Below, piece after piece: positions 27,679 through 37,146 of a stretch of 40,035 nt of DNA. Made by a program: the position numbers and the translations under genes. A model generated the notes under the pieces. That model searched no databases, had not been told where the DNA came from, and saw only the letters and a program-made list of their open reading frames with translations. Source of the stretch: a virus; the UHGV virus genome UHGV-0090445, one strand, 5' to 3'. Numbering within the stretch: the stretch's first letter is position 1; every line of letters starts with the position of its first letter.

Positions 27679-29559
27679 TTAATACTCTGTCACGTTTTCC
27701 TGTCGCCACGCCTCGTCATATTCCGATTTCGGCATATTGGCGATGTAGCTATATGGCGATCCTGATTCAAGTTGCAGGAACTGGTGCGATTGTTCATCAA
27801 GGAACAACGGGACACCACCTTCCCAACCTTCGCCGTTACGTTGTTTTTCTAGCATCAAAACAGATGCCGGAGACGCCAGTAGCTGTTCGTCCTTCTCTGA
27901 CATCTTTTCACCACTCTGAACTCTCTGTAACGCTCTCTCGCGAGCCTTGTTACGCCAGATGATGAAAAGGTTGTCTGTCAGGTCTGTTATCGCTCCAGAG
28001 CCTTTTACGTCCATTTTCCCGGTTGGTTTTTCTTCGCTGTCTCCTTTTCGCGAGTGAGTAACGAGAATGACGTGGGAGTTTGTTTTGTTTTTGAAGTCGC
28101 AAATCGAGTCAACAAACGCCTTCTGCCCGTTATAGTCATCGTCGCCTATGCCACATTTCATCAGGCTGTCGATGATGAATAACTGGATCCCGTATCGGCG
28201 GCGAGCGTAGTCGAATATTTCGATCAGCCTGTCGGCTTTCGCCGTTCCGGTCAGGCCAAACACCCAGAGTCTTTCGTCATAGAATTTAAATGCAGAGTCA
28301 ATTTCAAGCACTGGCGGCATCTTGCAGCACGTTGCCTGACGGGTAAGGCGCTTAAGGAGAATACCAGGCTTCAGCTCAAGTGACGCGATGCACGTCTTCA
28401 CACCCTGACGCATTGCCTCAAGTGCCATATGCCCGACAACCTCCGTTTTTCCGTGACCGTTCACACCATTGACCAGCGTCAACTCGGCCTCACGGAACTG
28501 GAATTTATCTGCCAGAGATTCCCACGGTGGATTAAACAGATACTGCTGCTTGCCGTAGAAAGCGTTGATAGTGTCCTGGTAAAACTCTCGCGCGCTGTAG
28601 AGTTCTTCAGGGTCGAAGTAGGATGCCGTGCCGATGTACTGCCAGATTTCATCCTCGGTAACACCGTTCATCAGGCATTCGTTGATGTCTTTGTACGGCA
28701 GAGTAACAAGACGGCAACGATGTTCACCGAGTCGGCTTGCGATTTCCCTTGCGGCTTCACGACCAACATCATCAACGTCCATCGAGATGAATATTTCCTC
28801 AAACCTGTCGAGGTTGTGATACTCAAACTCAATCCACTGTTGCTTAGCGCCTTTCCCGCCACCAAACGGCACGGATAACGCCGAGATGCCGTATTGCGCA
28901 TAGCTCATACAATCAATTTCGCCTTCGCAAAGTACAACCGCCCTCACGCCAGCGTCCAGAGCCTGCCATCCGAACAGACAAGGTTCGCAATCACCTTCTG
29001 CCATAATTACTTTCTTCCCGTCCGGGCGATCAGTGCTGATTCGCTTGACCTGCAACAACTCACCATCGCGTTTGTACGGAAGCACCAGAGCATCCAGTTC
29101 TCGCTCTCCATTCCACACCTTGCCGCTGACAACCTCGTAGCGCTTTACGACTTCTGGCGATATACCACGCGATTGCAGGTACTCAAGATGGGATTCTGTT
29201 CTGGTAACGTAGCGGGCGATTTTCTTGCGATCAGGTCTGGAGAATTTTTTCTCACGTTTGGCATCGAAATGGTGATCGTCATCCTTGATACCGAGAAATG
29301 CTTTCGCTTCCTGCATAGCCTGATGCAGGTTAATTCCACGACATGCCATCCACAAATCAAGCATGTCACCGCCGTCTCCCTCAGCGAAATCAGCCCATTT
29401 TTTCTTGCCGCTAAGGTTGACCTTAAGGCTGTTTCCCTTGTCACCGTTGACGTTACCGGCAACCCACTCATGCCCCTCTTTCTTGCCGTTTGGCAACAGG
29501 TGCGGAGCCACCCTGTCAACCTGCGCCCAAAGCAGGTCGCTCAGTTCACTTGGAGTCAT
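27679..29559 (-). CDS. Bifunctional primase-helicase (Toprim-type primase N-terminus, DnaB-like helicase C-terminus)
   Basis: 626 aa; Toprim-like acidic motifs (VVLCEGEIDCMS, FISMDVDDVGREAAREI); Walker A LVNGVNGHGKTE and DnaB-like FIIDSL...; downstream of the initiator gene. Confidence 0.85.
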   Translation of the reverse strand: MTPSELSDLLWAQVDRVAPHLLPNGKKEGHEWVAGNVNGDKGNSLKVNLSGKKKWADFAEGDGGDMLDLWMACRGINLHQAMQEAKAFLGIKDDDHHFDAKREKKFSRPDRKKIARYVTRTESHLEYLQSRGISPEVVKRYEVVSGKVWNGERELDALVLPYKRDGELLQVKRISTDRPDGKKVIMAEGDCEPCLFGWQALDAGVRAVVLCEGEIDCMSYAQYGISALSVPFGGGKGAKQQWIEFEYHNLDRFEEIFISMDVDDVGREAAREIASRLGEHRCRLVTLPYKDINECLMNGVTEDEIWQYIGTASYFDPEELYSAREFYQDTINAFYGKQQYLFNPPWESLADKFQFREAELTLVNGVNGHGKTEVVGHMALEAMRQGVKTCIASLELKPGILLKRLTRQATCCKMPPVLEIDSAFKFYDERLWVFGLTGTAKADRLIEIFDYARRRYGIQLFIIDSLMKCGIGDDDYNGQKAFVDSICDFKNKTNSHVILVTHSRKGDSEEKPTGKMDVKGSGAITDLTDNLFIIWRNKARERALQRVQSGEKMSEKDEQLLASPASVLMLEKQRNGEGWEGGVPLFLDEQSHQFLQLESGSPYSYIANMPKSEYDEAWRQENVTEY

Positions 29560-29669: not shown

Positions 29670-30467
29670 TCACCTGTCGAAAAACACGTAGCCAGTTTTC
29701 GATACGGTGATTGCGGATGATGGTTTGGATTGTGGTTGAATAGTTTCTGGCTTCTCGTCGTTCCAGCGTTGACCGTTCAGGTAGCTCGATGGTAACAACC
29801 TGTCGAACCCGAACTGCTTACCGAGCCTGCACGCAATGTCTTCTGCCAGCATCGTGGCAAACTCGCTTGCCGTCCCCCTGGTAGTTTTACGCCATTCCCT
29901 GAACTGTGTTCTGAATGCTGAAGCTGCGTTTTTCTTCCCGGCTTTCCGCATGCCTGCACACCAGAATATTTCCTCGAATGCCTTGTCGGTTTCTTCGTGA
30001 CGGTCAGGAGTTTTTTCACACTCTGTTCGGACATGTTCGAACATAATGTTTTTAGGTTCATTGACTGGTTCAAAAGAGTGATAGGTTCTGGGGGCAGCTC
30101 CTGCCCCACCCCCTAGGGCAGCTCCTGCCCCACCCCGGGCAGCTCCTGCCCCACCCCGGGCAGCTCCTGCCCCACCTGATTCTGGTTGGATTTGTTGTGC
30201 ATTATCCAGCGTCAGATAAAAAACGTTTGACTGGTTAAGCTCTCCTTTTCTTCTGAATTCCCTTTTCAAAAGCCCCATCTCTTCCAGTGCCCTAATGTGA
30301 CTTTTTACTGTCGATCTGCTCACCTCACACTGGTCAGCGACATGTTGATATGAAGGCCAGCATTCGCCATTATCATTGGCGTTATCGGCAAGTTTAATCA
30401 GAACCAGTTTTCTCAGTGGGTTGCCAACCTTTATATTCATGGCCTTAGCCATAAGATTCATGCTCAT
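29670..30467 (-). CDS. Replication initiator (O-like, winged-helix HTH N-terminal domain) containing the origin iterons
   Basis: 265 aa; N-terminal RKLVLIKLADNANDNGECWPSYQHVADQCEVSRSTVKSHIRALEEMGLLKR; internal peptide repeats GGAGAAR x4 encoded by the iterons. Confidence 0.75.
   Translation of the reverse strand: MSMNLMAKAMNIKVGNPLRKLVLIKLADNANDNGECWPSYQHVADQCEVSRSTVKSHIRALEEMGLLKREFRRKGELNQSNVFYLTLDNAQQIQPESGGAGAARGGAGAARGGAGAALGGGAGAAPRTYHSFEPVNEPKNIMFEHVRTECEKTPDRHEETDKAFEEIFWCAGMRKAGKKNAASAFRTQFREWRKTTRGTASEFATMLAEDIACRLGKQFGFDRLLPSSYLNGQRWNDEKPETIQPQSKPSSAITVSKTGYVFFDR
30094..30176. repeat. Origin of replication iterons: four dyad-symmetric repeats with 21-bp spacing
   Basis: GCAGCTCCTGCCCCACC at 30094, 30118, 30139, 30160; each contains GGGGCAG/CTGCCCC inverted arms; located inside the initiator coding sequence as ori-lambda is inside O. 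Confidence 0.7.
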
Positions 30468-30619
30468 TTTGACTTCTCCGAAGTTTTGTACCTGTTAAGT
30501 ATTTCTCTCAGTGGCACAGCTATTGCTGGATTAACCCCCTGATAAAACTGGTCACGTAGCACATCTTTTCGGTGATTAACGCGTTTATTTTCCTGCGTTT
30601 TTCGCATATAATTACCTCG

Positions 30620-33951: not shown

Positions 33952-34920
33952 ATGAGTGAAGTAACAGATTTAGTTGTTATTGAAAAAGCAAATGCAATGA
34001 CTGTATTTCAGTCTGCCGACCAGATTGAAGAAATCCTTCAAAGGGTTGAACGTGAAGTTATGTCCTTTGTGCCTGATATCACAACGGCAAAGGGCAGAAA
34101 GGAGATCGCTTCTCTGGCGTATAAAGTTGCGCAGACGAAAACATATCTCGATGGTCTTGGCAAAGACCTTGTTGCTGAACTGAAGGAAATTCCAAAGCTA
34201 ATTGATGCCAACCGCAAGACAGTGCGTGATCGCCTTGATGAGCTGAAAGCCAAGGCGCGCCAGCCTCTTACTGATTATGAGGAGGAACAGGCACGGATTA
34301 AAGCCGAAGAAGAAGCTAAGGCAGCAGCTGAAGCTCTCGCAAAGCAAATTGAGTCTGACCATGAAATAGCGATTTTGATGGATCGCGAATTTGACCGCCA
34401 AAGAGAAGAGGCAAGACTCAAAGCGGAGCAGGAAAAGCGAGAGCATGAAGAACGCTTAAAAAGAGAAGCTGAAGAGAAAGCCAGAGCAGAAGCCGAAGCA
34501 AAGGCAAAAGCCGAAATTGAAGCAGCAGCAAGGAGAGAAGCAGAAGCTAAGGCCGCAGCGGAACGTGCAGAGCGTGAACGCATTGAAGCCGAGCAACGAG
34601 CACAGCGCGAAGCAAAAGAGGCAGCAGAACGAGCTGAAAGAGAAAAGCAGGCGGCAATTGAAGCAGAACGCCGAAAAGCACAGGAGGAGGCTGAACGAAT
34701 CCGGCGCGAAGCTGAAGCAAAAGAGCAAGCCAGAATAGCAGAAGAAAAAAGAATCAAGGACGAAGAAGAGCGTAGAGCAAAGGATAAAGCTCACCGGAAA
34801 GAAGTAAATAACAAAATACTTGCTGACCTTATCAAGGTTGGCGCATCAGAAGATGTTGCTAAAAATATCATAACAGCCATCGTAAAAGGCGAAGTATTCG
34901 CAACAAAAATAACCTACTAA
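33952..34920 (+). CDS. DUF1351-like coiled-coil protein with Ala/Glu/Lys/Arg-rich low-complexity centre
   Basis: 322 aa; conserved-looking N- and C-terminal regions flanking about 130 aa of AEAKAKAE/ERAERE repeats; lies in the recombination module upstream of the annealing protein. Family name from memory. Confidence 0.6.
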   Translation: MSEVTDLVVIEKANAMTVFQSADQIEEILQRVEREVMSFVPDITTAKGRKEIASLAYKVAQTKTYLDGLGKDLVAELKEIPKLIDANRKTVRDRLDELKAKARQPLTDYEEEQARIKAEEEAKAAAEALAKQIESDHEIAILMDREFDRQREEARLKAEQEKREHEERLKREAEEKARAEAEAKAKAEIEAAARREAEAKAAAERAERERIEAEQRAQREAKEAAERAEREKQAAIEAERRKAQEEAERIRREAEAKEQARIAEEKRIKDEEERRAKDKAHRKEVNNKILADLIKVGASEDVAKNIITAIVKGEVFATKITY

Positions 34921-36175: not shown

Positions 36176-36643
36176 ATGTCTCACTTGGACGGAATTATTA
36201 AAAGATTCGAGTCCAGCTACAAAGTTAATGAAACAACAGGTTGCTGGGAGTCTACCTATTCAAAAAACAAAGGAGGATACACAAAATTTGTAGCCTTTGG
36301 CGTAACAATGCTTTCTCATCGGGTTGCTTTTGAGCTTTATCACTCCCCCATTCCATCTGGGAAGATGGTTTGCCACAAATGCGATAACCCATGCTGCGTT
36401 AATCCTGAACATCTCTTTTTAGGTAGCGCGCAAGAAAACATGGACGACAAGATAGCAAAAGGAAGGCATCGTGGAGCCAAGAAAGGTCATGCTCATCATG
36501 GTGCAAAATTAACAGAGTGGCAGGTTATAGAAATTAGGAAAAGACTCTCTGAAAAAGAGAGTCAGTACAAGATAGCAAAAGACATGGGTGTATCTCAATC
36601 AATTATAAGCAACATAAAAACTGGCAAGAGGTGGAGAAAATGA
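36176..36643 (+). CDS. HNH homing endonuclease with C-terminal HTH-like region, insertion between annealing protein and SSB
   Basis: 155 aa; Cys/His-rich HNH-like core ([26 protein letters not shown]); C-terminal [22 protein letters not shown]; stop overlaps ssb start (ATGA). Confidence 0.8.
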
Positions 36644-37146
36644 GTTCTCGCGGGATAAATAAGGTGATTATCCTTGGTCGGGTAGGACAAGACCCGGAAG
36701 TTCGATACTCACCATCAGGAACAGCGTTCGCTAACCTGACAATAGCCACGTCAGAACAATGGCGAGATAAAAATACTGGCGAGCAAAAGGAATTGACTGA
36801 ATGGCATCGTGTTGCTGTATCCGGGAAACTGGCTGAGGTCGTGGGGCAGTATGTGAAAAAAGGTGATCAGATTTATTTCGAGGGAATGCTGAGAACCAGA
36901 AAGTGGAAAGACCAGTCAGGGCAAGACCGTTACACAACCGAGGTTCATGTCGGAATTAATGGCGTGATGCAAATGCTTGGCAGCATTGGCGACAGCAAAC
37001 AACAAGCAGCCAGCAGGCAATCACAGAAGCCACAGCAGCAATCATCACCAGCACAACACAACGAACCTCCGATGGATTTTGACGACGATATACCCTTTGC
37101 ACCAGTAACTCTCCCCTTCCCTCGTCACGCTATTCACGCAATTTAA
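36640..37146 (+). CDS. ssb: Single-stranded DNA-binding protein with C-terminal extension past the DDDIPF tip
   Basis: [23 protein letters not shown]...[15 protein letters not shown]...[18 protein letters not shown] close to E. coli-type SSB; ends ...MDFDDDIPF then 15 further residues ([15 protein letters not shown]). Confidence 0.85.

Follow-up and report, generated by a model that had tools for sequence, protein, structure and literature searches.

Replication initiators may have their binding sites within their own genes. In the RepA_N-type plasmids of Gram-positive bacteria the iterons occupy the middle of the rep gene, flanked by the stretches that encode the N- and C-terminal domains, and G38P of Bacillus phage SPP1 binds repeats (oriL) within its own gene. 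In lambda O, P22 gene 18 and the corresponding genes of phages 933W and P27 the origin is placed centrally within the coding sequence, as about four dyad-symmetric iterons followed by an AT-rich tract; the N-terminal domain of lambda O binds DNA and its C-terminal domain contacts the partner that delivers the helicase. The iterons and AT-rich tract of ori-lambda stand mid-gene in O, with four iterons in lambda and six in Shiga toxin (Stx) phages, and the iterons nearest the tract are bound efficiently and are sufficient for unwinding (PMC7466680). Here we analysed virus genome UHGV-0090445, a stretch of 40,035 nucleotides referred to below as the window, in which four short dyad repeats lie within the linker-coding part of a gene for a replication initiator of 265 amino acids (aa). 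Judged from their sequence and its relatives, and with a probability of roughly three in four, these repeats are the iterons of the replication origin of the phage. We found no previous description of an origin for this module, nor any remark on the conserved AT-richer box beside the repeats; no published account of an origin or iterons was found for this type of initiator, with older accounts possible and subscription journals thinly covered.

The repeats were detected by Tandem Repeats Finder (TRF) as an array at 30092..30176 with a period of 21, 3.9 copies, 95% matches and a score of 143. The 16-mer GGGCAGCTCCTGCCCC occurs exactly four times, starting at 30092, 30116, 30137 and 30158 (span 30092-30173), and no further copy was found on either strand of the 40-kb window at up to two mismatches (0.01 expected from shuffles). 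An earlier note on this DNA, drawn up from its letters alone, had described four dyad repeats spaced uniformly by 21 bp; the four repeats were recovered both by TRF and by the exact word count, but the spacing is 24, 21 and 21 bp on the plus strand, that is 21, 21 and 24 bp in the direction of the gene. The same note had placed the repeats inside an initiator open reading frame (ORF) and had them encode a GGAGAAR peptide. This held, as the array is translated within the ORF at 29670..30467 (minus strand) into SGGAGAARGGAGAARGGAGAALGGGAGAAPR, a series of GGAGAAR repeats, and homology bears out the identity of that ORF as a replication initiator: aa 17-67 match the helix-turn-helix (HTH) family HTH_36 (PF13730, E 5.5e-14, 52.2 bits against a gathering cut-off of 25), PHROGs returned 'replication initiation protein' and 'replication initiation O-like', and upstream of the gene lie cI, a cro-like gene and cII, downstream of it a gene for a 626-aa primase-helicase. 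Each repeat unit is a 17-bp dyad with arms of 6-7 nt around a centre of 3 nt (GGGGCAG-GAG-CTGCCCC). In the window alone this symmetry is only modestly unusual, with equal arm length reached by 6.3% of synonymous GGAGAAR encodings and by 1.65% of shuffled units, and it is therefore not relied on as evidence; across the family it is convincing. The window has four 17-bp units in direct repeat at helical-turn spacing inside 29670..30467, set against the at least three repeats expected of an embedded iteron origin.

A protein search with the N-terminal domain gave 80 loci, one genome per species, in Pantoea, Enterobacter, Pseudomonas, Aeromonas, Xenorhabdus, Shewanella, Photobacterium and others. 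From Enterobacterales, Pseudomonas, Aeromonas, Shewanella and other groups, about 20 genera in all, we analysed 75 related arrays that are distinct from one another. Throughout these 75 arrays the layout is conserved while the word itself varies by clade. Four copies are commonest (36 arrays), followed by five (18), three (14) and fewer (7). Spacings are 21 bp (65 cases), 22 bp (26), 23 bp (24) and 24 bp (74), or 42-45 bp where a diverged copy is skipped, and the final spacing is mostly 24 bp, like that of the window. Both traits of the window's fourth iteron, its 24-bp final spacing and its direct contact with the box, are seen again across the family. In the last copy at least six of the eight pairs are symmetric in 44/75 arrays, compared with 0.57% of random 17-mers, and differences between word classes are symmetric in both half-sites. 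Phage SfV has five iterons, with the word AGTGCAGGAGATTCACC in orf39, and a perfect box; in ZF40 at least two iterons accompany the box. In their database records phi24B, SfV and ZF40 have no origin annotated in the initiator gene.

Directly after the last iteron, 76 of 81 genes carry a box of 27-40 bp (AGAACCAGTCACTCTTTTGAACCAGTCAATGAACC, encoding RTSHSFEPVNEP), which contains two to four direct repeats of GAACCAGTCA and occurs once in the window. Among identical amino acids the rate of identical codons is 0.90 in the box versus 0.49 in the equally protein-conserved HTH core. Identity over the first nine box codons is 84-100% (AGA in 64/66, AGT in 65/66 and TCT in 59/66), and rare codons such as AGA are kept even in GC-rich Pseudomonas. 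Synonymous conservation that persists in such genomes argues for a constraint on the DNA itself, here over 27 bp and across bacterial orders. The GC content of the 40-bp box is 0.40-0.43 across the family, against 0.64-0.65 in the array and a locus mean of 0.53; in the window it falls to 0.30 at 30040..30079, beside the array at 0.75-0.80. We propose that the box is a DNA-opening or helicase-entry element. By eye, with no formal test, no convincing match to a DnaA box or an integration host factor (IHF) site was seen within it.

The initiator gene contains, in this order, iterons, an AT-richer tract and a palindrome, in parallel with ori-lambda; the earlier note had already likened the placing of an origin inside the initiator to that of ori-lambda in O. 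Its further statement that the iteron sequence is unrelated to that of lambda also stands. The window protein has no PF04492 match in a Pfam scan with E up to 0.01, which listed HTH_36 and other HTH models, unlike epsilon34 gp50 (E 1.5e-35) and P22 gp18 (E 6.9e-38), which served as positive controls; the DNA-binding domain and its iterons are for this reason taken as unrelated to those of lambda. The lambda-type iteron word (of the type TCCCTC-N-GAGGGA) is absent from the window, where the word is GGGGCAGGAGCTGCCCC, whereas epsilon34 has words of the ATCCCTCAAAATGAGGGA type. Compared with lambda O, the N-terminal domain is thus of the HTH_36 or DnaD_N-like kind, the tract is a box of specific sequence, conserved in the family beyond mere AT-richness, and the partner is a phage primase-helicase in place of P and host DnaB, although some relatives of the window protein do precede a lambda-P homologue. 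P22 gene 18, the site of the classical P22 origin, whose record carries a rep_origin annotation, was ruled out as a known member of the family, as it has PF04492, different iterons and no box.

Across the family the N-domain, iterons and box are fused to 11 unrelated C-terminal types, and the next gene encodes a DnaC/IstB-like ATPase (32 loci), a lambda-P homologue (12), a DnaB helicase (6), a primase-helicase (3, the window included) or a protein of unknown kind. By these neighbours the initiator stands in the slot of lambda O in position, and presumably in role. A natural domain swap is seen in epsilon34, where gp50 joins a window-type C-terminal half to a lambda-O N-domain (PF04492). Homology between epsilon34 and the window begins at AAAAACATTATG, right after the origin-like segment, and the same primase-helicase follows in both. 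At the position equivalent to the window's array epsilon34 has lambda-type iterons, annotated as a putative ori, and no box. In the hybrids epsilon34 gp50 and ES18 gp59 the C-terminal half is 93-95% identical to the window at the DNA level and the primase-helicase 96% at the amino acid level; they differ in their lambda-type N-domain and iterons (PF04492 and ATCCCTCAAAA...GGGA words) and in having no box.

Could the repeats be initiator binding sites for autoregulation, as an operator, a roadblock within the gene or a site of 'handcuffing', with the origin elsewhere? The DNA-level evidence shows selection for a protein-binding site and not for origin firing as such, and most winged-helix proteins with this fold regulate transcription. 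Against this reading, a conserved AT-richer box always follows the array at a fixed distance, N-domain, iterons and box travel as one module, and the lambda-type relatives have an annotated or proven origin at exactly the equivalent position. Nor does the window hold a second copy of word or box that could serve as a separate origin or operator. We consider autoregulation without origin function improbable.

A second alternative is that the array is a slippage-prone, variable-number coding repeat for a flexible Gly/Ala linker, its dyad a side effect of codon choice and its DNA functionless. The linker is indeed of low complexity, the number of copies ranges from 2 to about 10 in near-identical genes, and 6.3% of synonymous encodings give an equal dyad. 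In diverged homologues, by contrast, the corresponding stretch encodes other short peptide repeats, some of them alternating two frames of one DNA word. Of 72 intact ORFs, 26 have copies read in differing frames; in one Aeromonas array spacings of 23, 22 and 24 bp give GAGAA and VQEIH, and another frame pair gives GGAGAA and GQELP. Copies read in different frames show that the DNA word is maintained and not the peptide, and copy number and 21-24 bp phasing are kept across bacterial orders despite unrelated peptides (PMPxGGT, GENIAPR, VGPEST). Many relatives have copies that are not in tandem at all, with unique spacers between them. Together with the near-total synonymous conservation of the adjoining box, the frame switching substantiates the earlier idea that the coding sequence is constrained by a DNA site; because the sites lie in coding DNA, the GGAGAAR peptide is best seen as a by-product of the DNA word. 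A functionless coding repeat is highly improbable, and the family offers an unusually clear natural case of overlapping constraints, in which a word is kept while peptide and frame change and the box is held at synonymous sites.

An action of the conserved DNA through structure (an mRNA hairpin, a cruciform or a G-quadruplex) or as a 'linker' for module recombination has an equally slim chance: dyads could form hairpins whose stems symmetric changes would preserve, G-runs in the window's word could in principle form a G-quadruplex and the box coincides exactly with the junction at which N- and C-terminal modules are exchanged, but the RNA of 30040..30190 folds no better than shuffles (z -1.23; 24/200 shuffles fold as well) and has no Rfam match, hairpins would require neither one shared sequence per array nor the retention of weakly symmetric words (3-4/8) as repeats, the G-runs are specific to the window's word class and absent from others such as CCCCTATGCC and GTAGGCCCAG, and a recombination linker is unlikely to hold 84-100% synonymous identity from E. 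coli to Pseudomonas and Shewanella. Structured RNA and G-quadruplex were both rejected on these grounds.

The reading of the repeats as origin iterons gains from the way in which they vary with the protein. An AlphaFold2 model of aa 1-96, with a predicted local distance difference test (pLDDT) score of 82.3, has helices at 17-29, 40-47 and 51-63 and a wing at 67-85; the N-domain is modelled as a winged helix in which the segment that varies with word class is helix 3, at the position of the recognition helix. Its fold matches are winged-helix DNA binders, many of them transcription regulators and plasmid initiator N-domains among them. The helix class co-segregates with the word class while the remaining N-domain is conserved, a descriptive association, uncorrected for phylogeny. 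The word GGGCAG-N3-CTGCCC is found with the protein segment RSTVKxHIR, GTGCAG-N3-CTGCAC with [KR]RSV[MI]NHI, GGTGAC-N5-GTCACC with KRSVMRHID, GTGAA-N5-TTCAC with RRSVMxHVK and TGCC-N7-GGCA with SKSAVRxHID, and a further class, DRSTVRKHIK, has its own word. Several word classes occur within Pseudomonas alone, so that the word is not set by the host. Such matched classes of helix and half-site may lend themselves to the study or engineering of orthogonal pairs of origin and initiator.

We suggest that dimers of the winged-helix N-domain would bind each 17-bp dyad through the helix at aa 51-63. Four sites about two helical turns apart (21-24 bp) would place the dimers on one face of the DNA in a complex like the lambda 'O-some', which would stress the adjoining box at 30050..30089 such that the duplex opens there, and the C-terminal domain may then recruit the phage's own primase-helicase (27679..29559). 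On this model the C-terminal domain would act as an adaptor for the primase-helicase, which would be the partner loaded at the origin.

Several points weigh against the assignment of the array as an origin. We found no experimental binding or origin activity for any family member in the literature. The GC dip at the box is short and mild relative to the classical lambda tract. Helix and word lie about 100 bp apart, so some co-segregation is expected from physical linkage alone. The word class GTAGGCCCAGAAAGCAC has only 3/8 symmetric pairs in the scored frame, and in SI5, Stx2_EH2085 and two further loci (L008 and L020) every copy has GAC (Asp) for GCC (Ala), which weakens the dyad to 6/8 pairs. 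Finally, the variation in copy number among near-identical E. coli prophages would also be expected of a neutral slippage-prone repeat.

A broader proposal, which we hold tentatively and regard as somewhat less probable than not, is that the box is a sequence-specific opening and loading element, recognised either by the part of the initiator that does not vary or by a host factor that Gammaproteobacteria have in common, and that hundreds of phages share it irrespective of iteron word, C-terminal domain and helicase partner. With the swappable pairs of helix and half-site, the box would then mark out a large origin family, undescribed so far, that has a readable specificity code and a universal core and to which the origin of the Eru5 Stx2a phages of E. 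coli O157:H7 would belong. The array is a concrete candidate origin for a widespread module, found in 357 phage records and in 305 of 5426 complete E. coli genomes, in many prophages of Pseudomonas, Aeromonas, Vibrio and Xenorhabdus, and in Stx2a prophages of O157:H7, whose replication is unstudied.

The sense-strand decamer AACCAGTCAA, part of the box at 30061..30070, is found again at 30227..30236 in codons of the wing (ELNQSN). As this second copy lies upstream of the array, box-like words flank the iterons on both sides in the window's clade. To the right of the box, the palindrome listed in Table 1 is possibly a right-hand origin element. Its counterpart in epsilon34 is TCCGAAAGCGTTCGGA, and in P22 the AT-rich tract is followed by CCCCCTTACCCCCTAAAGGGGG; lambdoid origins may accordingly in general have a palindrome on their right-hand side. 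A palindrome of a C-run and a G-run (e.g. CCCCCCTGTATCCCCCCAGGGGG, coding for PPVSPQG) follows the box in loci L038, L047, L053, L056, L081 (Aeromonas), L028 and L062, which share a type of C-terminal module. It is similar to the palindrome CCCCCTTACCCCCTAAAGGGGG of P22 (L087, 2961..2985), which is inside the annotated origin of that phage.

Table 1. Features of the putative origin and of the adjoining replication genes in UHGV-0090445.
Feature	Position	Strand	Remarks
Initiator gene, 265 aa	29670..30467	-	Predicted winged-helix N-domain, repeat-encoded linker and C-terminal partner domain
N-terminal winged-helix domain, aa 1-96	30180..30467	-	AlphaFold2 model and fold matches
Predicted recognition helix, aa 51-63, RSTVKSHIRALEE	30279..30317	-	From the model; segment varying with iteron class
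Putative iteron 1	30157..30173	-	Sense GGGGCAGGAGCTGCCCG; farthest from the box
Putative iteron 2	30136..30152	-	Sense GGGGCAGGAGCTGCCCG; 21 bp after iteron 1
Putative iteron 3	30115..30131	-	Sense GGGGCAGGAGCTGCCCT; 21 bp after iteron 2
Putative iteron 4	30091..30107	-	Sense GGGGCAGGAGCTGCCCC; perfect 7+3+7 dyad; 24 bp after iteron 3; adjoins the box
Conserved AT-richer box	30050..30089 (27-nt core 30063..30089)	-	Sense AGAACCTATCACTCTTTTGAACCAGTCAATGAACCTAAAA; encodes RTYHSFEPVNEPK
Palindromic stretch TGTTCGAACATGTCCGAACA	30024..30044	.	Found by TRF; start of the C-terminal module, just after the box
C-terminal domain	29670..30052	-	93-95% DNA identity to lambda-O-type initiators of epsilon34, Sf101, mEp043 and others
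Primase-helicase, 626 aa	27679..29559	-	Pfam Toprim_2, AAA_25 and DnaB_C; phrog_239, DNA primase/helicase

The window belongs to an E. coli phage of mosaic, P22-like/CUS-3-like make-up, and its replication genes are shared with Stx phages. The initiator is 96-97% identical to 'O' of the Stx2 phages phi24B, Min27 and Stx2a_F403, and the gene has 97.4% DNA identity over its full length to that of Stx2a_F403, the Eru5 reference. By this degree of identity the module is of the 'Eru5' type of Stx2a phages, although the window is not itself a Stx phage. The primase-helicase is 96-99% identical to its counterparts in epsilon34 and phi24B; for Eru5 the comparison was made with P of phi24B (96-99% at the amino acid level, an insertion apart). 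Phi24B differs from the window in having three iterons instead of four and an insertion of about 330 aa in its primase-helicase. Within 'P' of phi24B (compared over L001, 1..2890) this insertion lies exactly inside the Walker A motif (GHGK | T) and ends ...THN before the T; it looks like an intein, and the window copy is without it. The published description of Eru5 is confined to the proteins, mentions neither an origin nor iterons, and notes a lack of any knowledge on the replication of Eru phages (Llarena et al. 2022, PMC8951638).

More distant resemblances were also followed. In a Foldseek search with the N-domain, RepA_N-type initiator chains (4pql, 4pt7 and 5kbj) ranked 3, 11, 12 and 19, with E of about 1e-3 and template modelling (TM) scores of 0.51-0.59, like many unrelated regulators. 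The plasmid initiators of this type share a winged-helix N-domain with the window protein but belong to plasmids, not phages, and the window protein has no Pfam RepA_N match and no relationship at the sequence level to RepA_N. A sequence search of the Protein Data Bank with the initiator gave nothing below E 0.28. Relatives of the initiator score weakly, at 22-26 bits against a cut-off of 27, with PF21984 (DnaD_N), and the window protein has no PF21984 match at E of 0.01 or less; this type of initiator matches phrog_186, 'DnaD-like helicase loader', with E 7.9e-9. A distant relationship with DnaD-like organisers such as SPP1 G38P is possible, although the repeats and host range of SPP1 G38P are unrelated to those of the window.

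Immediately upstream of the initiator, a 47-aa ORF (MRKTQENKRVNHRK..., 30464..30607, minus strand) ends in a stop codon that overlaps the initiator start (ATGA). Small ORFs are found at the equivalent position in P22 (orf48), epsilon34 (gp49), SI5, SfV (orf38) and ZF40 (gp13) and point to an upstream gene that is conserved and coupled in translation to the initiator.

Copy number differs among close relatives, with two iterons in SI5, three in phi24B, four in the window and seven in Stx2_EH2085, and with five and up to about ten in other near-identical genes. In complete E. coli genomes the gene is 777, 798, 819 or 927 bp long, so that iteron number is polymorphic among near-identical E. coli prophages. 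The copies are identical within the E. coli/Salmonella clade while their number drifts from 2 to about 10, and in these close relatives the array thus acts as a homogenised repeat of variable copy number. All O157:H7 Stx2a prophages among the matches listed have the three-copy form. Among the database homologues are many 'partial' proteins, 100-170 aa long, whose ends fall within or close to the repeats, and four loci (L006, L017, L070 and L075) are frameshifted within the array, the box then being read as PEPVTLLNQS. It seems that such arrays either disrupt assembly and gene calling or are, in prophages, hot spots of frameshift decay, and in practical terms a copy-number-variable array of this kind is a source of broken short-read assemblies and gene calls.

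TRF reported two other repeats in the window, both ordinary coding repeats: a hexamer array at 34464..34547 in the gene for a 322-aa coiled-coil protein rich in E, A, K and R (33952..34920, plus strand), and a 21-mer at 37007..37055 that encodes the Q/P-rich tail of the single-stranded DNA-binding protein (SSB; 36631..37146, plus strand).

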